A DNA stretch of 21,586 nt from Candidatus Micrarchaeota archaeon. Lineage in GTDB: Archaea; Micrarchaeota; Micrarchaeia; Norongarragalinales; Norongarragalinaceae. Positions within the stretch are counted from its first letter, which is position 1. Each line of letters opens with the position of its first letter. The notes beneath the pieces are model-generated. The model was not told the origin of the DNA. It ran no database searches and worked only from the letters and a program-made list of their open reading frames with translations. The translations under genes and the position numbers were made by a program. Shown piece after piece: positions 709-19,200 of this stretch. The stretch spans positions 1-21,586 of the forward strand of contig JBBIMI010000013.1 in NCBI GenBank assembly GCA_037444485.1, given 5' to 3'.

Positions 709-790
709 CTTTTTAACTTTTTTCTTTTTTTCTTTTTTTTCTTTCCTCGTCTTTTCTTTTTTTCTTTTTTTCATTTCTGCTTCTGCTTTT
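709..790. repeat. Low-complexity T/C tract (A/G on the coding strand) at and after the P-loop kinase stop
   Basis: About 80 nt made almost entirely of T runs broken by C. Confidence 0.8.
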
Positions 791-1478
791 TTAAGTTCCT
801 TATGTAGTCAATCACGCGCCGCGTCAACATTTTCGTCCTTTCAGGCAAAATTCCTAGTTCAAAACTCGTTGCGAAAGGCACGTAAATTACGTTGTTTTCC
901 TCGAATTCCTTCAAATTCTCTTCTTTTATTACTGCTGGACTTTCTGTAAGCTTACTCGTTTTCGGATTCTTGCGGAGTTCAGCGTAACGCTTTGGCCCGA
1001 CTAACGACCCAAACCTGTTTTCGCCCGCGGCTTCTGCAGCCGCGATGCGTTCTTCAGCTTTTTCGCTAGTGGTTAAACACTCTATAAAAAAAACTTTCGC
1101 GCCGAAATCCCGCGCGATTTCATACAATGATTCGCGCTGGCTTTTGTTGATAAACGTTCCGGTAGCCACCGCCAAGCCTTTCTCATTCAAATCATTTTTT
1201 ATCCTGCGCATAAGCTCGTTGTAAATCTTATCCCGCTCTCTAGGCGAAAAAGCACCTTCGTTAATGCCTTCCAAACTTTTCTTGATAAGACTTCTCTCGA
1301 CGAATTCGTTTCTAATTTCGTCAGTCGAATGCACTTTGATAGGTTCAGGCAAGCCTGAGAGTTCGCTCAAGTGCTTGGAAATGCTGTAGGCAACCGTGCT
1401 TTTACCGCGCCCTAGCGCGCCGACGATGGCGATTATGACGCGCTGTTCACCGAACGGTTTTCCGCCTTCTTTAAACAC
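771..1478 (-). CDS. P-loop kinase, AAA_33 / gluconate-kinase-like family
   Basis: Walker A GALGRGKST after hydrophobic strand IIAIV. STDEIR (S-D-x-x-R family motif), AVATGTF (variant of the vilDATF strand) and FFIEC...EERI lid region. Confidence 0.8.
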   Translation of the reverse strand: MFKEGGKPFGEQRVIIAIVGALGRGKSTVAYSISKHLSELSGLPEPIKVHSTDEIRNEFVERSLIKKSLEGINEGAFSPRERDKIYNELMRRIKNDLNEKGLAVATGTFINKSQRESLYEIARDFGAKVFFIECLTTSEKAEERIAAAEAAGENRFGSLVGPKRYAELRKNPKTSKLTESPAVIKEENLKEFEENNVIYVPFATSFELGILPERTKMLTRRVIDYIRNLKKQKQK

Positions 1479-1546: not shown

Positions 1547-2482
1547 TTATGTTAATTCGTTTATTAAACTCTTTATCTTATAGAGCGAAAGGCTGGACTT
1601 GCCCGAGCACACTACAACATCCCGCCTACCGTACCACTTAGCCCGCTTGTTGTCTTCGATTCTTTGCAACCGTTTCAACAACAGCGTCAAGTCAATGTTC
1701 TTGCTCTCTTTACCCGTCCTCACGCCGATTACCATCTCATTTTTTGACTCTCTGCGCAGGACTACTGGCGTCTCCGCAGCCGCGTAAACCGCGATTCCTG
1801 AGACGATAAAGTTTTCGTGTAGTAGCTTGCGCGAGTCAAGCACGCTCAAAAAATTGTTTTCCTTGCGCAACCGTCTTCGCGCTACGGTGATAGCCTTTTC
1901 GATTGCTTGAAGTCCAGCTTTATAGTCTTTAGAGAAAGCTTCAATGTTTCGAATTGCTCTCCCTAGTTTTTCAACGCTTGACCGTAAGAAAATCGTTTTC
2001 CGCTTCAACGAACTCAATTTTTTTAATTCTAGCGCCTTGTTCAACCAGCCAAGCATCGCGTAAAAAAGCTTTCTCTCCCGCCTGCCGCGAATGCGATAAT
2101 CGCCGCTGAACGCAGTGAAATCGCCGAACACCGCCGTTTCCCGCAATAGCCGCTCTTGTTTCAACGCCGCGCGCGGATTGGCGAACGCGAATACCGACAA
2201 CAGCGCGTCAGCGTCGAAATTGTCTGTGCAGACGACGTTATCGCCCTCTAAAACTGTTTTAACGCCTTTTTTTTTGATGAAATCCAAGCATTGTTCAGTT
2301 GAAACGCGTTTTTGAGAATACTCGTCGTGGTGGTCTAGCACTACGAGGTTTTCTAGTTTCTCGGCGTTCTTCCGCCCGATGTTGGAATCAACCAAATAAA
2401 CCGCGTCAAACTCGCGGCACAAGCGCTGAACATGACGCAAGCCAAAAACCTTCAAGCCTACGACCTTAATGTGCATCCCCAT
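1547..2482 (-). CDS. DHH-superfamily phosphoesterase-like protein (DUF6687-like)
   Basis: Motifs YLVD, LDHHD, CTDNFDADALLSVFAFANP, AVFGDF and C-terminal WYGR. The order resembles DUF6687 proteins (HFDxDGLLS...P...GDF...WGGR), recalled from memory and not searched. Confidence 0.65.
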   Translation of the reverse strand: MGMHIKVVGLKVFGLRHVQRLCREFDAVYLVDSNIGRKNAEKLENLVVLDHHDEYSQKRVSTEQCLDFIKKKGVKTVLEGDNVVCTDNFDADALLSVFAFANPRAALKQERLLRETAVFGDFTAFSGDYRIRGRRERKLFYAMLGWLNKALELKKLSSLKRKTIFLRSSVEKLGRAIRNIEAFSKDYKAGLQAIEKAITVARRRLRKENNFLSVLDSRKLLHENFIVSGIAVYAAAETPVVLRRESKNEMVIGVRTGKESKNIDLTLLLKRLQRIEDNKRAKWYGRRDVVVCSGKSSLSLYKIKSLINELT

Positions 2483-2687: not shown

Positions 2688-3290
2688 ATGGTTGAAAAAA
2701 GAATAACTTCAGTGTCTAAAGCGCACGTGCTTCAATGCGTTTACCTTGGCTTGAACACGAGCGCCGACATAGCGAAAGCTTTAAACACTTTCAAGGAAGC
2801 GGTGGAACGCGAGCTGGCCGCGCTCCAGCACTCTGGCCTAGTAACTGCAGGCGGGGTTATCGGCAAGAAGTACGAGTTGACAGCAGAAGGATTGAATTCG
2901 CTTGGTTCAGCTCGCATTGAATTGACTACAGTGCGAGAGTCAGCTGTCTTAAAAGCCAATACTTACAGCACGCTTTCCATAAGTGCTGTTAACGCAAGCC
3001 AGAAAGCCCCTTGCGCTCGCGGCTTGATTCGCATAATCTCGCCGAAAGTCATGAACGTCACTCGCGTTGGCGGCGCGCAGTACGAGGAAGACCCTGAACA
3101 CAACGTTCTCGACTATTTCCTCCCACAGTTGAATCCAAACGAGAGCATCAACTTGATTTTCGACATGGTCGGCACGCTGCCAGGCGGCATAGTGTCAAGC
3201 AAGTACAAGCTGACGATTCAAGCTTACGTGGGTGAAACGCTTACCGACAAGAAAGAAATCTCTATCCACATCGAAGAACCTGTTTCTTAA
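2688..3290 (+). CDS. Winged helix-turn-helix protein with C-terminal Ig-like beta-sandwich domain
   Basis: N-terminal TSADIAKALNTFKEAVERELAALQHSGLV...KKYELTAEG is a classic wHTH with wing. The C-terminal ~120 aa alternate as beta strands, with a DUF11/CARDB-like LPQLNPNESINLIF. The stop overlaps the convergent HAD stop (TTAA 3287-3290). Confidence 0.75.
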   Translation: MVEKRITSVSKAHVLQCVYLGLNTSADIAKALNTFKEAVERELAALQHSGLVTAGGVIGKKYELTAEGLNSLGSARIELTTVRESAVLKANTYSTLSISAVNASQKAPCARGLIRIISPKVMNVTRVGGAQYEEDPEHNVLDYFLPQLNPNESINLIFDMVGTLPGGIVSSKYKLTIQAYVGETLTDKKEISIHIEEPVS

Positions 3291-4332: not shown

Positions 4333-6816
4333 TCACGCTACAACCTGTCCATTCATTGCCTGGATGAAGTTTGACTTCGGGCTTGCTTTTTTTACTATAG
4401 AGTAGATCTTGTCTGCTAAGATTAAGGCTATCAAGGGTGCTACTAGAAAACCCTCTTTCGGCACCGGAATGTTTTTTATTACTTCCCCATGGTCTTCTCC
4501 AAACGTTTTTTTGCTTAACCTTTCCAAAGCTTCGCCGTGCATCCTCCTCGCGTTTTCCTTAAGTAGGCTGTCGTTCGGTTTTCCAATGTAAAAAGCTACC
4601 CCAATCTTGTTCCTCCCGTCGCTTCGCGCCGCATAAAGCTTTTGAATGATGCTGCCAGAATGCACCGTATGCGCTTTAGAGGGTTGAAGCAACGCGGTCC
4701 AATCTTTTTCTTTTGAGTGAATTGCTTTGAACGACATCCACGCGTCTTGAGTTGATTCCGAAACCGCGCGGACTTTTATAGCCGCGTACACTGGTCCCTT
4801 CTGACTTAAACCGCTAAGCGTTTCTTGAAAGTCGGTAGTTCCAACGCTTTCAGGAAGGTAAATGAGCCTCAGTTTACCGTGAATGTTTCCCTCGTAAGGA
4901 TTTTGGGTGACTTCCTCGAAGCTTTCTTCGATAGGCGTTGTTGTCACGATGTAACCGGGATGCTCTCGCAGTCTTTCCATCAACTTTAACGTTTCATTAC
5001 TTGCTTCAAGCTGTTCCTTGGCAACCGCTTTCTGTTTAACGATTTTCATAAGCGTTTCAAGTTTTTCTGCATTGGAAGCTTTACTATATGCATTGTAAGC
5101 TTTACTATATTCTTTCTCGAAAATTTTAATCGTCTGCTTCTGCGCTTTGGCGAATTTTTTCAACTCCGTCTCGTTATTGTAAACAAGCCAAGGATACTTT
5201 TCTATCAACTCAAACTTAATGTCTTTAAACGCGCTTGTCTCATTCGGGTTGATAATCTTGTAAGCGGGCGTGATTTTCTTTAAACCCCGTTCGTCCGAAA
5301 TCAGGTTGTAACCCCGGTACTCGCATAACAACAGATTCTCGAGCGCTTTAGTGAGTGAACTGCAAGAATTGTCAAGAACTTTTTTCGGCGTTGATTTGGG
5401 TAAAATGTTTTTTTTCTCGGCTTCAATCATGTTTTCAACGTGTGGGCGTAATGCAGTCCAAAAAAAGTCAGCGCGTTTCGATGCGTTCAGACCTTGAAGT
5501 GACTCTTCTGGCAGCGAGGCTTCAAACAGTTTCCGAAGAAAGTAAAGCCTAGAAAGCCGCTTTTCCTGTTTATTCTTAGCTTCAGCTTTTTCTGCGTCTG
5601 TTTTTGCTCCACTCCCAGTTTTTTCAAGAATCTCGTTGTGCTTTTTCTCGAGATTTTTGCTTTCTTCCGTCAAGAACAACCATTCTTCTGGGCTCAGCGT
5701 TTTTAGAAACTGCATATATACTCTTAAAACTTGTTCTTGTCGTTCCGCAAGTTTCTTCAAGTCTTTCCTTTCAACGAATGCTTTAGTCCAGGCGCTCATT
5801 GAAATGCTCGACTTGATAACGCTGCTTGAAAACAAGTCTTCCAACTTGGCTTCAACTTCTCGCCAGAATTCCGGTTTTTCGAACACCGACTTTTCCTCGG
5901 AAACCGGCTCGGGTTTCCCGCTTATTTTCTCGCTTATTTTCTTCAAGTCTTTAAGCAGGTCTCCAGCGTTTCTATAACGGTTTTCACGGTTTTTTTCCAA
6001 CAACTTCATCACGATTTTTGACAATTCTTCTGGAACGTTCGGGTTTAACTTCGCTGGCTCTACTGGTGTTTTCTCTCTTACAGCGTTTTTTAGTTCTCCG
6101 ATAGTCTTTTCTTTTTCTTTGAACGGGTGTTTTCCAGTAAGCATTTCGTACATTACTACCCCAAAGGAAAACAAATCGGAACGCCCATCGAGCAAGGGTT
6201 TTCCAAACTCGCTTTGTTTTTTTGGGTTGTCTGCCAAATCTATTTGTTCTGGCGAAGCGTGGGTCGGCGTTAACGCCTTGGGATTGATTACCGCCATCGA
6301 AGGCGTTGAAATTCCCAAGTCTAGAAGCACCGCCTTGTTTTTCTTGTCGTCTATAATGATGTTTCTAGGCTTCAAATCCCTGTGAATGAGATTATTCTCG
6401 TGAATATGTTTCAACGCTTCAGCAATTTGAGTGGAGTAATTCAAAACAGTTTCTACGGGCAAAGAGTGTTTCTCGTCCAAAATCTTGCGCAGGGTTTTCC
6501 CCCTCACGAAGTCGCTTGCCAGATACACTATCTTCTTGTCCGAGTCGAATCCAATGTCGTGAAGCACCGGAATGTTGGGATGTTTTAAACCCCCGTGCAT
6601 CAATGCTTCGGTGAAAAACATTTCAATAAGAAGGTATTTCTTTTCAACCATCGGCCTCCCGAGCATTAGCATTAACTCTTTTCCCGGCTGCGACTCTAAA
6701 GGCATTAACTTTAAAGCAACAATCTTGTGCGTGTGGGGATGTTCCGCCCTCCAAACAGTGCTGAAACCACCGCTTCCAATCTCTTCCAACAACTTGTATT
6801 CGCCAATCTCCTTCAT
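4333..6816 (-). CDS. Hanks-type Ser/Thr protein kinase (PknB-like N-terminal kinase domain) with ~520-aa uncharacterised soluble C-terminal region
   Basis: Gly loop IGSGGFSTVW, VALK, alphaC Glu (FFTEA), HPNI, HRDLKPRN, DLG (DFG variant), ASPEQ, DGRSDLFSFG, G-x-x-PF, R in NRENRY. No obvious TM helix after the kinase domain. Confidence 0.95.
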   Translation of the reverse strand: MKEIGEYKLLEEIGSGGFSTVWRAEHPHTHKIVALKLMPLESQPGKELMLMLGRPMVEKKYLLIEMFFTEALMHGGLKHPNIPVLHDIGFDSDKKIVYLASDFVRGKTLRKILDEKHSLPVETVLNYSTQIAEALKHIHENNLIHRDLKPRNIIIDDKKNKAVLLDLGISTPSMAVINPKALTPTHASPEQIDLADNPKKQSEFGKPLLDGRSDLFSFGVVMYEMLTGKHPFKEKEKTIGELKNAVREKTPVEPAKLNPNVPEELSKIVMKLLEKNRENRYRNAGDLLKDLKKISEKISGKPEPVSEEKSVFEKPEFWREVEAKLEDLFSSSVIKSSISMSAWTKAFVERKDLKKLAERQEQVLRVYMQFLKTLSPEEWLFLTEESKNLEKKHNEILEKTGSGAKTDAEKAEAKNKQEKRLSRLYFLRKLFEASLPEESLQGLNASKRADFFWTALRPHVENMIEAEKKNILPKSTPKKVLDNSCSSLTKALENLLLCEYRGYNLISDERGLKKITPAYKIINPNETSAFKDIKFELIEKYPWLVYNNETELKKFAKAQKQTIKIFEKEYSKAYNAYSKASNAEKLETLMKIVKQKAVAKEQLEASNETLKLMERLREHPGYIVTTTPIEESFEEVTQNPYEGNIHGKLRLIYLPESVGTTDFQETLSGLSQKGPVYAAIKVRAVSESTQDAWMSFKAIHSKEKDWTALLQPSKAHTVHSGSIIQKLYAARSDGRNKIGVAFYIGKPNDSLLKENARRMHGEALERLSKKTFGEDHGEVIKNIPVPKEGFLVAPLIALILADKIYSIVKKASPKSNFIQAMNGQVVA

Positions 6817-6895: not shown

Positions 6896-8578
6896 TTAAT
6901 GTAGTTCGAGCACTTCATACAATTGCAGCTGCTTTTTCTTGCCTTTTACTGAAACTGGTTCGAGGGCCTTGACTTTAACGTGGCTTCTCACAGCCTTGAA
7001 CGTTGAATCATTTATTATGACTTGTCCGGCTTGCGCGACGCTTGCGATGCGCGAGCCTGTATTAACGTTGTCTCCGATAACACCGAATTTCTTGAACTGC
7101 TTGCTTCCAATGTTCCCCAAAATCATTTCTCCAGTGTTTATGCCCGCACCCATCTTGAATTCGGCCTTCTTGTCCTCACGCCTCCACTTTTCATTCAAAT
7201 TCTTCAACGCTTCATTCATTTCGAAAGCGGTTTTTACTGCAAGCAGCTCGTGATTCCTCTCGCTCTTAGGCGTCGCGCCGAAAATAGCGAAAATCGCGTC
7301 GCCAATGATGTCGCTGATCTGCCCGCCGTTTTTGAACACGATTTGAGTCATTACTTCCAAGTACTCGTTGAGCAGTTCCAGAACCTCGCGCGCGTCCAAC
7401 GCTTCGCTTATCGCGGTGAATCCCCTCAAGTCGGTGAACAAGACTGTAAGAATCTTGCGTTCGCCCTGAGCAACTCCGCTGGCCTGCGCGCGCGCGCCTG
7501 CTTCAAGCGCGGTTTTGAGAATCGTTTCGCCGATTTCTTTCGAAACGTAAGTCGTGAACAATTCTTTGACTTTCTTTTTTTCCTGCTCTTGAAAAATAGC
7601 GTTGTTTGCTTGTTTAACGAGCGAGGAGAACAGCGACAAGTCTTCGAGCGTGAAATGCTCGTTGATGCCGTGCTTGTTGAATACTTCGAAAACGCCGATG
7701 ACGATTCCGTCTTCCGCGATTGGTTGCAGCAACGCGTTTGAAATCGTTGGACTCACTTTATTCAAGCGTTTTGTTTCAAGGCTCTTCGCAGCCTCTATCG
7801 CAAGCGTTTTCGGGAGTTCGTAGTGCGTGAACTCGAATTCCTTGCGCGCGACGTCGGTCGCGCCTGCAACATCAAACTTTTTAGCGGTTTCGCTTTCTTT
7901 CAGCAAAACCACGCCCATCTCTGCGTTTAAGGCTTTCGTTATTTCCCCTAAGACGGCTTCCAGTAACTCGCGCAAATCACGCATGCTCGTGGTGTACTTG
8001 TTAATGCGGTTGATGAACTCTATTTCTTTTTCCTTTAAAGCCAACTCTAGCTTTAAAGAAATTTTTTCTATTGCCGCGCTGGCGCTCAACGCGATGGAGG
8101 AAAGAACTTCCACGTCAGCTTCAGTAAATGCGCCGCCGCCCGCCTTGCCGAAAACGCCGATTACCGCCAACGGGTTGCCTAAGCCGGAGAAAACCGGCAC
8201 GCAAATCATTGAATGCCTGCCCCCGCTTTTCTCTAAGCCTTCTGCAAACAACAAGTTTTTGTGACGCTGGATTGCTATTGAAGCCGCATCTTTGAGTGCA
8301 GCGTAGTCAGTGTCTTGAAACAATGCGTGCACTAAATCGTCTGCAGAGACTACGATTAATTCTTTCTCGCGTGGAACGATGACGAACGCGGCTTGAGCGT
8401 TTAAAGCCTTAACGCATTCCTTCAACAACGCTTCGTTTAAAGCATTCCAATCGCCGGCAGCGGTTAATGAAGCGAAAGACTCTAAGAGCGTGCGCTGAAC
8501 TCGAGTCTTGTGTTGCAGCAACGCTTTCAGCGAGTCGATTGAACTCGCGGCGCTCGTCGAACTAGTTGAAGCAGGCAT
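6896..8578 (-). CDS. Soluble class III nucleotide cyclase with two N-terminal GAF domains; guanylyl-cyclase-like specificity residues
   Basis: GAF1 (SMICVP...AVIGVFGK...FTEAD), GAF2 (LLQPI...GVFEVFNK...FTLED), FTTYVS linker. Catalytic TVLFTDLRGFT, IIGDAIFAIFG, GINTG, GNIGS, IGDNVNTGSR, VKGK. The ATG at 8578 is preferred over the TTG at 8596. Confidence 0.95.
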   Translation of the reverse strand: MPASTSSTSAASSIDSLKALLQHKTRVQRTLLESFASLTAAGDWNALNEALLKECVKALNAQAAFVIVPREKELIVVSADDLVHALFQDTDYAALKDAASIAIQRHKNLLFAEGLEKSGGRHSMICVPVFSGLGNPLAVIGVFGKAGGGAFTEADVEVLSSIALSASAAIEKISLKLELALKEKEIEFINRINKYTTSMRDLRELLEAVLGEITKALNAEMGVVLLKESETAKKFDVAGATDVARKEFEFTHYELPKTLAIEAAKSLETKRLNKVSPTISNALLQPIAEDGIVIGVFEVFNKHGINEHFTLEDLSLFSSLVKQANNAIFQEQEKKKVKELFTTYVSKEIGETILKTALEAGARAQASGVAQGERKILTVLFTDLRGFTAISEALDAREVLELLNEYLEVMTQIVFKNGGQISDIIGDAIFAIFGATPKSERNHELLAVKTAFEMNEALKNLNEKWRREDKKAEFKMGAGINTGEMILGNIGSKQFKKFGVIGDNVNTGSRIASVAQAGQVIINDSTFKAVRSHVKVKALEPVSVKGKKKQLQLYEVLELH

Positions 8579-8605
8579 AAAAAAAATTTTGAGCAAACTA
8601 CTTTT

Positions 8606-9625
8606 TTAACCCAGCGACTTGCCGGCAACCAACAACTTGACGCGCGTCAAACACTCTTCCAACGCCGCGCTCGCGCGCGTTGGGTCGCCGCGCGCGCCGC
8701 CCACGAACTCGTGCCCGCCGCCGCCACCGCCGAAAGCCACGCCGGCTGCCTCCATGATTTTGCCTACGTTTCCCCGCGCGCTTTGCGCTTTCACTCCACT
8801 CACGCGTCCATCGCGGTCGTTCGCAACGAACGCGTAATCACAACCAAGAGCTACAAGCGCGCTCGCGCACTGGAGTTCGAAAGCATGCGCTCGCGCGAGG
8901 GCGACTAGCGCCGCGCGCTCGCCTTCACCGATTTTCTCGATTCGCGCTCCCGCAACCGCCTTTAAAACCGTAACGCGTTCGCTTAAGTCGGGCTTCGGCG
9001 TTGCAAGCGAAAGAATTTTTTTGAAGTCCACGCCGCGCGTTCGCGCGAGTTCGCCTGCGTCAGCGAGCGTTGCGTTTTCCGCGCTTTTGAATAACGCGGT
9101 GTCGACAGTGATTCCAGCGAGCAGCAACGCTGCCGTCTTCGCGTTTGGTTTTACACCTAGTTTTTGCGTGATTTCGAAAACTATTTCGCTCGCGCTCGGT
9201 TTTTCGAGGTCGACGTAAACGAAAGCGTTTTTCAAGTGCCGCGTGTGGTAGTGGTTGTCTATCGCGATTACAGTGCCGCGGAACGCCTCGATTTTCGCGC
9301 TCCAATCGCTTAAAAGAGTGGGCGTGCTCACGTCTACGAGTATTATGTTTTTGAAGGAATCAAGTTGTTTGATTGCTTTCGGTGTTGGAAAACCAAGGCC
9401 GGCGAGAATGCGTCGCGCGCTGGCAGTCGCGACGTCAATGCAGCGTACTTCGCATGAAACGCCCTTGTTTTTTTGTTTGAGCGCGTTGGCGAGCGCGTAA
9501 GCGCTGGCAACGCTGTCCGCGTCGCCAAGCGAGTGGAACGTGATTAGCGTGCGTCCTTTAATGGAGAGTAGTTTGTCGAGTAGTGTGGTTAGCGTTAGGG
9601 TTTTTGTTTTCGCGGGTTTTTTCAC
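8606..9625 (-). CDS. DHH/DHHA1 family phosphoesterase (NrnA/Pde2-like)
   Basis: Motif I ITFHSLGDADSVAS, motif II ILVD, motif III IDNH (variant of DHH), motif IV GITVDT, DHHA1 GGGGGHEFVGG. Confidence 0.92.
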   Translation of the reverse strand: MKKPAKTKTLTLTTLLDKLLSIKGRTLITFHSLGDADSVASAYALANALKQKNKGVSCEVRCIDVATASARRILAGLGFPTPKAIKQLDSFKNIILVDVSTPTLLSDWSAKIEAFRGTVIAIDNHYHTRHLKNAFVYVDLEKPSASEIVFEITQKLGVKPNAKTAALLLAGITVDTALFKSAENATLADAGELARTRGVDFKKILSLATPKPDLSERVTVLKAVAGARIEKIGEGERAALVALARAHAFELQCASALVALGCDYAFVANDRDGRVSGVKAQSARGNVGKIMEAAGVAFGGGGGGHEFVGGARGDPTRASAALEECLTRVKLLVAGKSLG

Positions 9626-13208: not shown

Positions 13209-16200
13209 ATGGGATTACGTGAATCGTGGGAGTCTTTCTTGGCGTGGAGTGAAGAGAAAGGCTTACCGTTGTCACAGTTCGCTTACTGGCTTGAAGACCA
13301 CGGGATTCCCTCGCTGCCCGCGCTTGCTTTACTGATTGTGGTTGTAATCGCTTTGCTCGCGCTCGCAGTTTTTCCATCGCTTGGCGTGGGCGCGCCCCGC
13401 GTTGGAAGCGTCGTCGTTCGCGTTATTGACGTGAGCGGCTTGCCTGCTGAAAACGTTTCCGTCACCGTAACCGCGAGTGAAGGCGAGTTTACTGAAACGC
13501 GAGCAACTGCGAGTGACGGGAGCGCGCGTTTCGAAAAAATTCCTGAAGGCTTGATTACTGTTACCGCGCGTTCGAACGCTTTTTTCTTTGAAGACGGGGG
13601 CCGCATTGAAGAGAAAATAGAGAGAGGAAAAGAAAAAATCGTTTCGTTCACTGCAACCCCGCTTGAAATCAATCTCGTGTCGTTGTACGTTGAAGTCGAG
13701 GGAGTGGATAACGCTAACATTTACTTGTTTGACTCGAGCGGAGTACAATTACAGCAAGACTTCGGCTATCGAACTGAATTCCACGTGACTCCAAACGCGA
13801 ATTACTTAGTCCGCGCAGCGCTCGCGGGTTACTCGCCAGTAGAAGAAAACGTGAGCGTGGGCGAGCAGAGTGCAACAGTCAAACTGCGTTTGACTCGCGC
13901 GGGCGAAGTTGAAAAAACGCTTTTGCATGTTGGCGTGTTCGACTATGAAGGAATCGAAGGCAACCCGATCGTGAACGCGAGCGTTACAGTAGTGGAAAAA
14001 ACAAGCAGCAGGGTTGCAGCGCGTTTGACTACTGGTGAAGATGGAACTGCGGACGCGAGCGAAGTTCCACGCGGAGCTGTTCTCGAAATTTCCGCAAGCG
14101 CGCCAGGTTTTTTAAGCGAGTCGAAGAACGTTAACGCCAGCACCGACGTCGTGAACGTGAAACTGCGTTTGCGTAAAGCAGGCGTTGACGCGAGCTCCGT
14201 GACGTTGCGCGTCGTCGACCAGTTTGGCGACGCGATCTCGAGCCCCATCGTGCGTTTTTATGAACGCGGCGCTTTCAAGCAAGAATTTATTCCCATTGAC
14301 GGAATAGCTTCAATCAATTCAACCTCGCTTGAAACCTTGTACGCGACCGCGTTCAAGCCAGGCTTTCTGCCAGCAATTGCGAAGACGCTAAAACGCGGCG
14401 AGAACAAGCTCGCACTCGCGCTCGCGAGCGAAAACAATTCCGGAATCGTGCGCGTCCACGTCACAAACAAGAACGGCGTTCCAGAAAGCGAAGCCTTCGT
14501 CACACTGTTAGACGCTGAAAACGCTGAAAAGCGTTTTCTCGGAATCCCGCCGCGAGTCACCGGCATTGACGGCTTGCAGCAATTCGACGGGGTTCCGGCA
14601 GGCACGCGCTTGATCGCTGTAGCTTCGAAAAACGCGCGAAGCGCGTCAAGCAACGTTTTCGAAACTCCGCCTGGCGCTGGCGGCGTGGACGTTGAAATCG
14701 TTTTTCAACCAGTCAAGACGAAGCTCGAGGCAAGCGTGCGCAACGCGTTAAACAACGCGCCGGTTTTAAACGCGCGAGTTTTCGTTTCAACTGAAGACGC
14801 TAACGCTTCATGCGTCACTAACGCGTTAGGAAAATGCGTTGTTGAAGTGTTCGAAAGCGACGCCGCAATCGCGCGCGTCACTGCAAGCGGCTTCGACGAT
14901 TTTGAAAGCGCGTTTTTTTCACTCGCGCCGAACGCGTTGAATTCACGCGAGTTCGCGCTCACGCCAGTCGGGCCGGCTGCAGGGCAAATCACGTTCACTG
15001 GTTTTTTTGACGCGCGCGGCAAACGCGTGAATTCACTCAAGCCGTTAAGCACGTACTCAGCGAAATTCGTTTTACGAAGCCTTGAAACCGAATTCAAGCA
15101 AGCGCGCGCGCACGTGCGCGTGGGCGCGCTTGAAACTCCTTTAAGCGAGGAAAACGCGGTCATCACCGGCTACTCTAGCGCCACGTCGAGCGTGACTCGC
15201 GGAGTTTCTTACGAGGAAACGCTTGCTGCTGCAGCAGCTGCAGCAGGCGCGGGAGCAGTTGGCGCGTCGAATGCTTCGATTCCAGAGTTGAAGGGCCACG
15301 CGTTAATCGAACTCGGCGATTACGGTTTTTCGCCGCCTGACGTTGAAGTTGTTCTCGGCGACGAAATAGTTTTTCAAAACAACGCGAACGCCACGCGCGT
15401 CATCGTTTTCGACAAGCAGTTTAAAGGCGCGCCCGCTGCGCTCACGCTCTCAGCAGGAAAAACCGCTTCGCTGACGCCAAGCGAAACCGGGTCATTCGCT
15501 TTCCGTGAAGCAACGAATCCAGAATTCGTCGGCACGCTCAACGTCGCCCCCAAGCCAGTTGAAGAAGTGGAAGGCGCGGCAGTGAACGGCGCGCAAGCAC
15601 GCGAGTTCAAGTGGGTTGAATTCGCGTTCGAAAAATTTCGGGGCTCGCGCGAAATAGTCGTTTTCTTTAAAACGAAAAACCGCGTTGACGGAAGCGTGCG
15701 CTTCGAATACCGTGCAGCGTTCCTCGCGCAATTCGGGAACGAGACTCTCACTCTACGCGACCCAAAGGATGATGAAGCAAGCAAGACGAAGCCGGAAGCG
15801 CTCGCGCTCGCGAAAAAAACAAGCGAAATCCCGATAAAATTTGTTGGCGAGTGCAGCGACCCTCAAGCAGAAGGCGGCGAGAGCGTTTGCCTGCAATCGA
15901 GTTTCGCGGGCGAAGGAGTGAAAAGCGCGAGTGGTTTTGACGCGCGTTACGGCGGTTCATTCAAAATCGTTTTTAAAACGCTGAAGGAATCAACGAAAAC
16001 CATTTTCTTGCGCGCGAGCACGGACTCTCGCGCGCTTGAACTCGTCCAAGGCGCGTTGGGTGGAGTAAAACTATTCACGCCTAAAAACTATCCGCAAACA
16101 CTAAACTATCAGCAAACACCCGCGCTTAAAACACTCGCGCTTAAAACACTCGCGCTCGAAACGCTTGCGCCAACACGCGAACAGAAAACAACGAAAATGT

Positions 16201-19200
16201 TTTTGCGAGAACCAACACTCCAACTAGTCGCTACGCCAACGCCCGCGCACCCCTCGCCGCCCTCGCCCGCGCCTGCTTTGCCGACCGCGTCTGCAGGCAG
16301 GGTTGCTGAGGAAGGCGTTCAAGAAGCAACTGTCGCGATTAAAGCAAGCGAAGCAAACGGTTTTTTTGAATTCAACGCCCGCCGCTTAAGCAAAGACTCT
16401 ATAGTTACGCTCTCCGCGTTCGACGACAAGAACAACCTCTTGCTTGAAACACGCGTTTCAATACGCGTAATCGCGTCCAGCATGCCTTCACTTAAAGTGC
16501 GCGTACGTCCAACAACTGTCACCGCGCTTGAAGACAACACTGTTTTCTTTACAGTCACCGACCAGTTCGGCGCGCCAGTCGAAAACGCGCGCGTCACGCT
16601 CGAAAGTCCTTTGCTCGCGGCAAGCGTCGAGGCAAGCGCAGAGGAAGCACGCGCAGCGCGCGGCGAGTACGCCGCGAGCGGCGTTAATCCGCTTGGCGTG
16701 GGTGTGATTGATTACCGGGTTGAAGCTGAAGGTTATCGAGTAGCGCGTGGAAGAATCGCTGTAAACCCGCCTTCAACAGTGCTTGAAGTGACGCCAACGA
16801 AAATCTCGTTGAGCGTAGAATCACGCGAGCAACCCGTCGTTGAAAGCTTGAACGTCGAAAACAAGTTGTCGAACGCGTTGCGTGTTGCCGCAAGCGTCGC
16901 GCTCGCGCGACAACCCAATCTCGTTGACGTGAGTTTGACGCCTTCAACGCTTTCACTCAAAACACGCGAATTAAAGCAAATCTCGTTGAGCGCCGCAATC
17001 AAAGACGCGGTGCTGCAAATAGCTGAGAAAACGCGCGTGCAAAGCGAGCGCGTGACTGGACGCGTCGTGTTGTCAACGCGGGTCGGCTCGTTTTCTGAAA
17101 CTCGCGAAATTCCTTTAGAAGTAAACGCGGTTGTCGAACAACAATCGCTTGAAGAATTGTGGAGCGTCGACCAATCGAGCTTGGAATTCCAGCTTAATGC
17201 TGACGACAAGCGTTCTGAAACCCTCTCTATTTCGGTTTCCAATAACGCGCCTTACCCGCTTTTACTGAATCAAGAAAACTCGCTTGATGGAACAAGCGTT
17301 GAGCCGCTTTCGCAAGTAATTGAACCGAATTCGCAAACCCAATTTTCCGTCACGACGCGTTTCACTTCAACTGAAGAATGCGTTTTTTTTGACTCGACAA
17401 GCAAAGGCACTCTCGTGTTGCACGCGAGTTACGCTGGCTTGACTTCCAAGAAAACCGTCGCGCTTTCGCGAACAGTTAAAGCAAGCGGCAAATGCGTTCC
17501 ACCAAACGGTTTCCGCGTGACTCTACCATTATCGCTAACTATTCCGCTTCCAGCAAACGCGCTCGTGAAAAACAATGTTGACGGTTCAACTACAGTCAAA
17601 CTCGCGACGCAAGAATTAATGCAGTTCGACGCCGGCGCAAGTGTTTCACCTGCGCAAGCAGTCGTGCCACTAAACACTTTCATGACTCTCGACCGCAAAC
17701 GCGTTACTCAACCTTCAAGCGGCAGCGTGACAATCACTTTCCCAACACAAACACAATACGTTATTCCAGCGGACGCGAGCGTCATCCAGCAAGGCGCTTT
17801 AATTGAAGTGCGCGCAGGCAGTTTCATCGCATTCTTTCCGCCTGGAACGCAGTTGAGTTTAGGCGGCTGGCCTGGCGTGGGCGCGGGCGTTGGCGCAGCG
17901 TTTCTTGGTTCCAGCGGTTACTACGATTACGGCGTCGGCGGTTCAAGCGTTTACGTCGGCGGAGGCGGGCTCGCGAAAATCGCTTTAGTCCCGCCTGAAG
18001 CGCCAGTGCGTTTCGAACGCTTTACCGCGCTCGAGGAATTCACGCGATTACTGGGTTTAATGCCTCCAGGCGGAATCGAAGTCCGTTTTCCAGTCGAAAT
18101 GTTTTTCGTTTTGCCTCCAGGCACCCGCGTCGAACGAATCGAGGCAGTCGCGCAATTACCTGTTCCACCGCAATTCCAGCAGTTATCAAACCTGCAAGGC
18201 TTCCAAATCGCGTTGTTACCTAACTTTGAACGCATCGCATTCGGTCCAGAGGCCGTCATAGCTCCCTTGCCTGGATTCGGTTTAGCGAACGCGTTAATCG
18301 CACGCGTGCCTATTGAAACGAGCGTGGTCTTCATGCCGCGTTACGTGCGCGTTGGAAGCATTGATTTGACTTTACCAACGCAAGCCGCGTTAGTAGCCCC
18401 CCAAAGCGCGAGCTTTAAACGCTCGCGAGCAGCAGGCAGGGAAGCAGGCGCGGAAGCAGGCGTAGAGTACTTGATGGAATCACCGAACGCGATAGTAAAA
18501 TTTTTTCGCGAGCCGACGCTTGAAACGAAAACAATTCAAGGACGAGAATTGAAAACAGCCAGCCTTTCTCAAGGCGAGCGAATAGTTTTCTTGAAAGGCG
18601 CGGAAGCGAAAACCGCGCTTGCTGAAGTCGAAGATCCTTTTGAAGTGCTTTCATGCAGTATTTCATTCATCGCAACCGAAGACGTGCGAGTTGACTTGCC
18701 TTTCGACGCCATCGTTTCAGAAAAACAAAACGCGGTGACTGCAAGCGTGCAGAAATGCAGTTCAGACTCGCGTTTTACAGTGAAAAGCGCTTCGAACGGC
18801 GAAACGCTCTTCGAATCGCCGGCCAGCAAGAAAATAATCGCGCAGAACGCTGTTGTTGAAGGAGCAGTAGAGGAAGGACGCGTTGCAGGCGAAGGCGCGA
18901 GCCTTCAAATCCCGAAAGGCTCGAAAATCGATTTCCGCCCGTGCGCGAAAACAAGCGAAGACTCGAAGAAAACAATGCTTGTTCTCTCGAGCCCGAGCAC
19001 GCTTGAACTTCCAGCTAACGCGGTGTTGAACGGCGTAAACGAACTCGTGCTGCCTGGAAAAACACTCGTGAAGATAATTGACGAGAACGGCAAGACGTAC
19101 TCGTTGAGTTCAACTGAACGCATTTCGCTGGATTACTCGAAAACCGGTTTTAGCGCAGACGACGTTCAAAAAATGCAGGAGCCGTTAAAGCAAGGCGAGA

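Follow-up and report, generated by a model that had tools for sequence, protein, structure and literature searches.

The question raised by this locus is which nucleotide is cyclised by the class III enzyme encoded at 6896..8596 on the minus strand of a 21,586-nt window (the whole stretch of DNA analysed here). The first base-specifying position of class III cyclases carries Lys in adenylyl types and Glu in guanylyl types; this protein has Asp. An archaeal host had been given for the DNA in a preliminary description and was borne out, as the archaeal SSU model won and homologues are named Micrarchaeota or Micrarchaeia; the genome (0.96 Mb, 95% complete) belongs to the class Micrarchaeia (DPANN). 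According to reviews, archaeal cells have been found to contain 3',5'-cGMP, no archaeal enzyme making or degrading it has been characterised, and the same holds for a bona fide archaeal adenylyl cyclase (PMC10249747, PMC8646023). The preliminary description, too, knew of no characterised archaeal guanylyl cyclase, in agreement with a 2023 review, which states that cGMP synthesis has yet to be assigned to a characterised enzyme in Archaea (PMC10249747).

The gene, which is of the GAF-GAF type, is an uninterrupted open reading frame of 566 residues with a TTG start at 8596 and a stop at 6896–6898. Its database version (P0002) has 560 residues and starts at Met7 (ATG, 8578); the residues N-terminal of Met7 are kept in P0003, an independent metagenomic homologue, and in P0004. 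GAF domain A (8066..8446, residues ~51–177) was recognised by Pfam GAF_2, GAF and GAF_3 together with a genome scan, and GAF domain B (7595..7981, residues ~206–334) by a second GAF_2 match in that scan, which found no other GAF domain in the 0.96 Mb. A linker (7454..7594, residues 335–381), which includes ELFTTYVSKEIGETIL, joins GAF-B to the class III cyclase homology domain (6926..7453, residues 382–557), all on the minus strand. The latter was identified by the genome scan and by Pfam PF00211 (Guanylate_cyc; 94.6 bits, E 7e-27, cut-off 21.9), and its PDB matches include Cya2 (2e-34) and CyaB (3e-33). By analogy, the linker may act as a signal-transducing helix. One DNA run (X1), possibly the origin of the sequence, contains the stretch and no RNA dataset containing it is listed; metagenome scans with P0001 and P0003 as queries returned no relative.

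The catalytic core of the domain is complete, as had been claimed, and every residue and coordinate described earlier (D389, D429, D433, K503/F504/G505, N512, R516 and KGK) proved exact. Codon reading and alignment placed the metal-binding residues at Asp389 (FTDLRGF; 7430..7432) and Asp433 (IIGDAIF; 7298..7300), and the transition-state pair Asn512 (7061–7063) and Arg516 (7049–7051) at 7049..7063, again on the minus strand; the KGK motif is K551-G552-K553. These residues align with their equivalents in 2W01 and 3R5G, and a single chain carries the full catalytic set of six, which is the arrangement of homodimeric members. The class III dimer is textbook, and judging from the family this domain would pair head to tail into a homodimer whose two active sites lie at the interface, in which Asp389 and Asp433 would hold two metal ions while Asn512 and Arg516 would stabilise the transition state. 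Comparison with P0003 disclosed 85% identity overall and 170 identical residues of 186 (91%) in the catalytic domain, more than in the linker or GAF-B, the linker being the least conserved region (21/34 identical); the high value for the catalytic domain is in keeping with an active enzyme under purifying selection. Unusual pocket residues, in a genome with no identified receptor or phosphodiesterase, could also belong to a cyclase-like protein that has lost catalysis or serves regulation only, but we regard this as highly improbable given that the metal, transition-state and KGK residues are all present and that conservation peaks in the catalytic domain.

To the base pocket belong Asp429 in ISDIIGD (7310..7312, minus strand), which occupies the first base-specifying position, and Lys503-Phe504-Gly505 in KFGVIGD (7082..7090, minus strand), where Gly505 is the second site and Lys503 the basic residue at −2; both were assigned from codons and alignment. 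D429 pairs, in ungapped HMMER alignments of high posterior probability, with Glu in Cya2 (IDEFMGD) and Lys in Pseudomonas aeruginosa CyaB (IDKFVGD). G505 pairs in HMMER with the Gly of Cya2 (KYGVVG) and the Thr of CyaB (DYTIIG); K503-x-G505 aligns with K-Y-G of Cya2 without gaps, and 6FHT, an engineered adenylyl Cya2, has Lys at the position aligned with D429. The sequence alignment to Cya2 and CyaB puts Asp429, and no Lys, at the base-specifying position and agrees with the earlier description of the pocket as guanylyl-type, not adenylyl (acidic, basic at −2, small). Specifically, the basic residue of guanylyl cyclases is present as K503 and their small or non-acidic second residue (Cys, Gly, Ala or Ser, where adenylyl types have Asp/Thr) as G505, and Glu at the first position is absent, replaced by the acidic but one methylene shorter Asp429. 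Every characterised guanylyl cyclase that we found has the longer Glu, and the literature yielded no characterised class III cyclase of the Asp type; we know of none that has been assayed. The three pocket changes are not a sequencing error, since the independent P0003 keeps all of these sites.

On these residues we infer, with middling confidence, that the substrate is most likely GTP and the product 3',5'-cGMP. A pocket of the form Lys...Asp/Glu-x-Thr would have been rebuilt to Asp429...Lys503-x-Gly505; Lys503 would hold the carboxylate of Asp429, to which guanine N1-H/N2-H2 would donate hydrogen bonds, and Gly505 would give space for the base, and it is this contact and this room that make GTP the most likely substrate. 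Contact of Glu with N1/N2 is described as the main determinant in guanylyl cyclases, with the second residue contributing mainly shape complementarity (PMC7384201). The protein as a whole would be a cytosolic signalling enzyme, with two N-terminal GAF sensors that presumably regulate the cyclase domain through the helical linker. Three features count against the choice of GTP: Asp429 is not Glu, Ser515 is not Tyr and Asp509 is kept.

A total of 394 distinct class III domains with the D-D-N-R catalytic set were surveyed, 339 of the Lys type and 47 of the Glu type. Lys-type domains have Thr at 505 in 312 cases and Gly in one, K/R at 503 in three, and the combination of K/R503 with Gly505 in none (0/339). 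The Glu type, by comparison, has K/R at 503 throughout (47/47) and G/A at 505 in 43 of 47 (G 22, A 21, D 3, S 1). Asp occupies position 429 in four of the 394 domains, three of which carry Lys503. The acidic/basic/small pattern of the pocket is beyond chance. Its D/K/G form is confined to the lineage of this cyclase, both among 120 word-indexed homologues and in 179 domains taken from the top 150 representatives in a set of 1.84 billion proteins. Asp509, which the cyclase has, is found in 326/339 Lys-type vs 0/47 Glu-type domains. Ser515 occupies the place of the activity-enhancing Tyr of Cya2, three residues past the transition-state Asn; Tyr appears there in just 5/47 Glu-type domains and is therefore not general to that clade.

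The survey bears on a first alternative, that the enzyme is chiefly an adenylyl or a promiscuous ATP/GTP purine cyclase whose pocket drifted under weak constraint. Drift would rarely yield the charge swap followed by all 47 Glu-type domains, as the 0/339 count for K/R503 with Gly505 illustrates, and no Lys or other hydrogen-bond donor is left for adenine N1. The pattern is also kept in P0003, with conservation highest in the catalytic domain, and a canonical K/D/T cyclase is already present in the genome. The alternative draws instead on membership of the Lys-type family by descent, with its Asp509 hallmark and without the Tyr of Cya2, and on sister pockets (R/N/D and G/H/T) which show that residues at the site vary within the small clade. 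It also draws on mutants: residue swaps in class III enzymes are reported often to give lower activity or mixed specificity rather than clean conversion, Glu/Gly mutants of Ma1120 having reached no more than equal specificity for ATP and GTP, and Ma1120 K101E having retained ~40% adenylyl activity at pH 9 (PMC4215837). Taken together, we consider a mainly adenylyl or mixed-purine activity unlikely.

The descent of the cyclase was evaluated with trees. With the three specificity sites removed, it joins L007 and L009 at 94/92. In the same tree the Glu-type clade, to which the CHASE2 cyclases of the cyanobacterial Cya2 type belong, forms a monophyletic group that leaves it out (100/100); another maximum-likelihood tree gave the Glu-type clade without it at 98 SH-aLRT. 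Full-length matches at 34–40% over >480 residues lead to genomes of its own archaeal order, in which homologues of the GAF-GAF cyclase occur in 6/68 genomes. L005, L006 and L008 of that order (K/N/T) and P0006 from a Woesearchaeota archaeon (K/D/T) share its architecture, length (544–569 aa) and catalytic residues, and are 33–40% identical to it over most of the protein, but they retain the adenylyl-type Lys and Thr that it lacks. The closest proteins in the tree, L007/P0123 (R/N/D) and L009 (G/H/T), have D-D-N-R intact and have likewise lost the first-position Lys, and L007 is of GAF-GAF architecture too; their replacement residues differ from D/K/G, however, and neither has an acidic/basic/small triad. 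A second Micrarchaeia cyclase that is phylogenetically separate, L027/P0270, has the pocket D/K/A.

Descent from the GAF-GAF cyclases of its own order suggests that the pocket is convergent and that the gene is not an acquired bacterial one of the Cya2 type. The guanylyl-like pocket looks to have arisen from archaeal GAF-GAF adenylyl-type cyclases, an origin favoured though not proven by the trees. Against this origin, an AU test on a hand-picked 49-row set did not reject a tree joining the cyclase with the Glu-type clade (delta lnL 18.3, p 0.12). The odd pockets of the nearest relatives, R/N/D in L007 and G/H/T in L009, could moreover reflect relaxed constraint and not a directed switch, which is a point against GTP. 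The label 'Cya2-like' used in the preliminary description holds for the pocket residues and, going by trees in which the Glu-type clade excludes the cyclase at 100/100, probably not for descent; nor does it extend to Ser515 in place of Tyr or to the retained Asp509. Convergence, if real, would indicate that the switch from adenylyl to guanylyl type is evolutionarily easy to reach.

Three different non-Lys pockets among the closest relatives could also mean that the clade is diversifying its messenger and that another nucleotide is cyclised here, either ITP or XTP, purines that likewise have N1-H, or, as in Pycsar, a pyrimidine. Asp instead of Glu and a pocket enlarged by Gly505 would suit such a substrate, PADLOC PycC models match the protein at up to 74 bits, and 3',5'-cCMP and cUMP are reported from an archaeon without a known cyclase (PMC10249747). 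Those models, however, score below the 94.6 bits of Pfam, and any class III cyclase is expected to match them; tandem GAF domains are the architecture of signalling enzymes, not of a two-gene defence system. For a pyrimidine in particular, characterised cyclases are described as narrowing the pocket with bulky residues, F100/R142/Q144 and Y50/D94/R97 (PMC11224242; bioRxiv 2026.08.12.744502), where the residues here are small, and there is no CNBD-TIR or CNBD-TM effector nearby and no CNBD in the genome. We rate a substrate other than ATP or GTP as quite improbable, and GTP remains the preferred reading.

Whether the surroundings of the gene supply a partner was considered next to the rest of the genome. 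A DHH/DHHA1 phosphoesterase gene (8606..9625, minus strand; Pfam) stops 9 nt short of the cyclase start, a spacing that makes co-transcription of the two likely. Homologues of the DHH gene are found in 53/68 genomes of the order, vs 6/68 for the GAF-GAF cyclase; it probably has a housekeeping function, and this distribution leaves it unsupported as a dedicated phosphodiesterase partner. NCBIfam gave weak family-II pyrophosphatase/NrnA-like matches for its protein, far under the cut-offs. Positioned 79 nt downstream of the cyclase is a Hanks-type Ser/Thr kinase gene (4333..6816, minus strand; Pfam, kinase residues 7–281), present in this genome alone among the 68 of the order. Its kinase domain is ~33% identical to bacterial kinases, the 80 loci retrieved being all bacterial and matching that domain only. 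The C-terminal part (~500 aa; 508 residues) gave no Pfam match, Atlas match or homologue besides itself, and with a C-terminal part lacking relatives the kinase has no support as a cGMP-dependent one. Further away, 2688..3290 (plus strand) encodes a protein of 200 aa whose orthologues stand directly upstream of Lys-type GAF-GAF cyclases in three related genomes, the place that the DHH gene takes beside the present cyclase. Its model (pLDDT 85.7) combines a winged helix with an Ig-like beta-sandwich and resembles integrin calf, CARDB and Sec63-type domains, a fold that lends no support to a role as cNMP receptor.

The same genome holds, on contig C4, a paralogous cyclase of 315 aa with a canonical K/D/T pocket, so that the Asp enzyme is not the sole route to cAMP of the cell. 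No match to the cNMP-binding domain PF00027 was obtained in the whole 95%-complete genome, and none to class II phosphodiesterase (PF02112) or to class I (PF00233), the latter a weak blank since the control search matched in no genome. This shortage of CNBD and class I/II phosphodiesterase matches, weak for class I, is a further observation against GTP. Two cyclases and no recognisable receptor in a DPANN genome of <1 Mb point to unexplored signalling, possibly linked to symbiosis.

More tentatively, and with somewhat less confidence than an even chance would carry, we propose that a DPANN lineage evolved a guanylyl cyclase afresh, starting from the GAF-GAF adenylyl cyclase that it already had and using an Asp-Lys-Gly pocket seen in no characterised enzyme. 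The protein would belong to a small clade with a diversifying base-recognition site (D/K/G, R/N/D and G/H/T, with the unrelated D/K/A enzyme in the same class), and its messenger would be read by a type of receptor still to be recognised, as classical cyclic-nucleotide-binding domains are missing from these reduced genomes. If this is true, the enzyme would be the first defined archaeal one for synthesis of 3',5'-cGMP (or another non-cAMP cNMP), and candidate receptors would be the two GAF domains of the enzyme itself, the kinase's orphan domain and the winged-helix/Ig-like protein. As a possible first cGMP synthase from an archaeon, the gene offers a concrete target for cloning, with the canonical Lys/Thr paralogue as internal control, and its Asp-for-Glu pocket probes the reach of the rule that two residues select the substrate in class III.

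Among known systems, the cyclases of Pycsar and Pucsar (PycC, PucC) share the fold superfamily with the present protein, as the PADLOC PycC matches reflect, and PucC is reported to form cGMP with an acidic residue and a Lys at the base (bioRxiv 10.64898/2026.08.12.744502). The archaeal cyclase differs in its GAF sensors, its small pocket residues and the lack of an adjoining CNBD-TIR/TM effector. Membership of these systems was rejected, its neighbours being a DHH phosphoesterase and a Ser/Thr kinase, PF00027 being absent genome-wide, and Asp429 and Gly505 being small compared with the PycC residues described in the literature.

The regulatory half resembles tandem-GAF phosphodiesterases and cyclases such as PDE2A and Anabaena CyaB1/CyaB2, in which a GAF pair joined by a long helix lies N-terminal to the catalytic domain; here, too, two GAF domains and a long helix precede the catalytic part, and the regulatory segment of PDE2A (1MC0) aligns from GAF-A to GAF-B (E 1e-6). 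The NKFDE motif marks GAF domains that bind cNMPs, and remnants like it, GK...FTEADVE in GAF-A and NK...FTLED in GAF-B, are imperfect. CyaB1/CyaB2-like cyclases differ in that the archaeal protein has no PAS domain. Pseudomonas aeruginosa adenylyl cyclase CyaB (3R5G) is the second-best solved match (E 3.2e-33) and of the same fold family, with a K/D/T pocket vs D/K/G. The best solved match is Synechocystis sp. PCC 6803 Cya2 (2W01; E 2.2e-34, residues 378–562, key sites free of gaps), which uses an E-G pair and whose guanylyl activity is enhanced by a Tyr (PMC4215837). Cya2 has that Glu and Tyr where the archaeal cyclase has Asp429 and Ser515, and a CHASE2 N-terminus (the cyanobacterial E/K/G matches carry PF05226) in contrast to GAF-GAF with Asp509; the two nevertheless share the acidic, Lys and Gly residues at the same positions, the same Asn and Arg, and the homodimeric class III type.

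The cyclase gene occupies nt 6896-8596 (-) as an open frame of 566 codons counted from a TTG; a public annotation of this DNA (P0002) starts at Met7 and yields 560 aa. Pfam assigned residues 382-557 to a class III cyclase domain (94.6 bits, E 7e-27); Pfam and a genome scan located two GAF domains at nt 8066-8446 and 7595-7981 (-), the best stretch being residues 51-177. A scripted check found the catalytic set complete (D389, D433, N512, R516, and K551-G-K553) and placed the codons of D429 at 7310-7312 (-) and of K503-F-G505 at 7082-7090 (-); every residue and coordinate of the preliminary description was exact, and the protein is a class III cyclase. The NKFDE motif is a mark of GAF domains that bind cyclic nucleotides, and NKFDE-like remnants are visible in the tandem GAF region, which aligns to the regulatory segment of PDE2A (1MC0, E 1e-6).

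A search of all PDB sequences ranked the Synechocystis guanylyl cyclase Cya2 (2W01, E 2.2e-34) first, closely followed by the P. aeruginosa adenylyl cyclase CyaB (3R5G, E 3.2e-33). The alignments were ungapped, with top posterior marks around both specificity sites. Opposite D429, Cya2 has its Glu (IDEFMGD), and CyaB (IDKFVGD) and 6FHT, an engineered adenylyl Cya2, have Lys; K503-F-G505 lies opposite K-Y-G of Cya2 and D-Y-T of CyaB. Since the distances from the metal Asp (-4) and the Asn (-7) likewise agree in all of these sequences, these residues occupy the specificity positions, where they had been placed originally, and the proposed comparison with the two enzymes returned an acidic residue at the Lys/Glu position and a K-x-G as in Cya2. 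One of the differences from Cya2 is Ser515, where Cya2 carries a Tyr that, according to PMC4215837, strongly raises guanylyl activity.

Four sets of domains were pooled for a survey of residues 429/503/505: a word-indexed search contributed 120 aligned domains from 121 proteins (P0004 is a fragment that does not reach the cyclase domain), and a library of 1.84 billion proteins contributed 179 domains through its 150 best representatives, taken together with the query; 121 rows centred on another archaeal protein and the cyclases from 401 genomes of the phylum completed the survey. De-duplication left 443 distinct domains, 394 of them with the full D-D-N-R set and ungapped at the three sites. 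Lys occupies position 429 in 339, accompanied by D/E503 in 274, K/R503 in 3, Thr505 in 312, and Gly505 in 1. Glu is found in 47, all with K/R503, and residue 505 is then G (22), A (21), D (3), or S (1). The four Asp429 domains (K/R503 in three, all Lys; residue 505 G in 2, A in 1, S in 1) are the query, its 85%-identical metagenomic homologue P0003, the archaeal L027/P0270 (D/K/A), and a CHASE2 protein, P0297 (D/T/S). With its coordinated charge swap and a small residue, the query pocket follows the pattern of the Glu-type (guanylyl-type) domains. This combination occurs in no Lys-type domain (0/339), so the three coordinated changes first remarked on go beyond chance. Asp509 of the query is present in 326/339 Lys-type and 0/47 Glu-type domains.

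P0003 comes from another data source and keeps every site, which argues against a sequencing error as the source of the odd residues. It matches the query at 170/186 positions in the catalytic domain, 137/165 in GAF-B, and 21/34 in the linker. Such a gradient points to an enzyme that is active and under constraint, and we regard an inactive protein as very improbable.

In a tree with the three sites kept (118 rows, after P0002, P0004, and two short rows were dropped), the Glu-type and Lys-type groups were apart and the query fell on the Lys-type side (98 SH-aLRT); removal of the sites (129 rows) gave the same separation and placement. A PMSF tree of 49 hand-picked rows recovered a Glu-type clade (100/100) without the query, which together with P0003 (100/99) joined the GAF-GAF cyclases L007 (93/53) and L009 (94/92), while L027 (D/K/A) paired separately with a K/D/T protein of its own family (99/83). 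When the query was constrained to lie within the Glu-type clade, the tree lost 18.3 lnL, and the AU test (49 rows, LG+G4) did not reject this placement (p 0.12). Glu-type matches to the query span the catalytic 39-47% only. Full-length GAF-GAF homology to archaeal Lys-type proteins (34-40% over >480 residues) and the retained Asp509 favour a local origin. The simplest reading is a pocket converted in place, and Micrarchaeia would then have evolved Asp-type pockets on two or more occasions. The label 'Cya2-like' suits the pocket residues, which align with the Cya2 positions, but probably not the ancestry: the trees place the query outside the Glu-type clade, and membership in the Cya2 clade is improbable.

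Within the phylum, class III cyclases have a scattered distribution (a match in 26 of the 401 genomes sampled), and the GAF-GAF form occurs in 6/68 genomes of the order. Three genomes have K/N/T pockets (L005, L006, L008), one, G136, an R/N/D pocket (L007; L036 2779-4452 (+); representative P0123), and one, G270, a G/H/T pocket (L009; L038 6349-7827 (+)); among the six, D/K/G belongs to the query only. The R/N/D and G/H/T cyclases, both with D-D-N-R intact, are its closest relatives, and the base site is unusually variable within this small archaeal clade. The D/K/A protein P0270 (464 aa, Micrarchaeia; L039 6394-7788 (-), contig C13 of genome G361; GTICDYAGD, KYAPVGD) has a 37%-identical Lys-type homologue, P0271; neighbours of its gene encode seryl-tRNA synthetase and UvrD/DEAD helicases. 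The second cyclase of the query's own genome (contig C4, L001 1486-2433 (-); 315 aa) is short and membrane-anchored, with a hydrophobic N-terminus, and its canonical K/D/T pocket (TVDKYIGD, VDYTVIGD) makes it a natural adenylyl-type control for query assays.

The N1 of ATP needs a hydrogen-bond donor. In the query, the carboxylate at 429 would be held by Lys503 and Gly505 would enlarge the base pocket, so GTP should fit better than ATP. PMC7384201, on the structure of a rhodopsin guanylyl cyclase, names the Glu contact to guanine N1/N2 as the main determinant of GTP choice and describes the second specificity residue as acting chiefly through shape. By such pocket logic the query would work like a guanylyl cyclase, though with Asp in place of the Glu of a strict definition. 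We give cGMP an even chance of being the main product; mainly cAMP, or mixed purine products, appears considerably less probable, and use of another NTP, with ITP or XTP among the candidates, is unlikelier still. Pyrimidine cyclases fill the pocket with bulky residues, as described in PMC11224242 and bioRxiv 10.64898/2026.08.12.744502, which makes a pyrimidine product less likely for a pocket enlarged by Gly505.

The DHH/DHHA1 gene stops 9 nt upstream of the cyclase TTG and is probably co-transcribed with it; as a cyclase partner it was rejected, since 35-51% homologues occur in 53/68 genomes of the order. In three related genomes, two of them from one genus, the match to the DHH homologue contains a single in-frame TGA (G403:C125:9198-10160, G373:C18:15546-16466, G355:C1:24412-25302), which could reflect recoding, a disrupted gene, or the boundary between two genes. 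A Hanks-type Ser/Thr kinase (4333-6816 (-), 827 aa) lies 79 nt downstream of the cyclase and was not detected in the order's other 67 genomes. Its kinase domain is nearest to bacterial kinases, mostly of Acidobacteriota (~33%); no relatives were detected for the C-terminal 508 residues, which end in a hydrophobic stretch.

A 200-aa protein at 2688-3290 (+), modelled at pLDDT 85.7, combines an N-terminal winged helix with a C-terminal Ig-like beta-sandwich, and model comparison identified no known nucleotide-binding module in its fold. Homologues of 48-52% identity occur in four of the 68 genomes (L035 3934-4539, L034 7996-8601, L037 4999-5616, L036 8868-9497); in three related genomes the orthologue lies directly upstream of a Lys-type GAF-GAF cyclase, and here the gene is 3.6 kb from the cyclase on the opposite strand. 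The DUF6687 and AAA_33 kinase-like genes (1547-2482 (-) and 771-1478 (-)) have homologues at L036 6714-7655 and 4461-5135, on the contig of the R/N/D cyclase of G136, which hints at a loosely conserved neighbourhood. Whole-genome searches of the 95%-complete assembly returned no PF00027 domain, a genome scan no GAF domain outside the cyclase gene, and searches with weak controls no class I/II phosphodiesterase.

The window corresponds to the complete contig C13, one of 58 in an assembly of 0.96 Mb with an estimated completeness of 95% and contamination of 0.2%. The archaeal assignment made earlier is supported by the SSU rRNA (1107 bits, the archaeal model winning its clan), by nearest named homologues called 'Candidatus Micrarchaeota archaeon' (P0004, 77%), and by a protein from a same-class genome named 'Candidatus Micrarchaeia archaeon'. 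The DHH and winged-helix genes, with homologues across genomes of the order, indicate that the contig is native to the lineage. The SSU rRNA match (contig C12 21763-24721 (-), L003 1501-4459) spans 2959 nt for 1478 model positions, with ~1.5 kb inserted, intron-like, and the LSU rRNA start next on the same strand. A giant open frame at 13209-21584 (+), of at least 2792 codons and running off the contig end, carries CarboxypepD_reg/Big_1-like Ig repeats near its N-terminus and presumably encodes a huge surface protein, a kind common in DPANN archaea.

A limited literature search yielded neither an Asp-type class III cyclase nor an archaeal guanylyl cyclase that had been characterised. For archaea, PMC10249747 and PMC8646023 mention very few predicted class III cyclases and 3',5'-cGMP synthesis without any characterised enzyme, in agreement with the preliminary description; cGMP, cCMP, and cUMP were detected in Haloferax, with the responsible cyclases described there as unidentified. 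Bacteria are known to have Glu/Gly-type and Glu/Ala-type guanylyl cyclases, Cya2 among them (PMC7384201, PMC4215837), and beside them the query stands as a solid, cheaply testable candidate.
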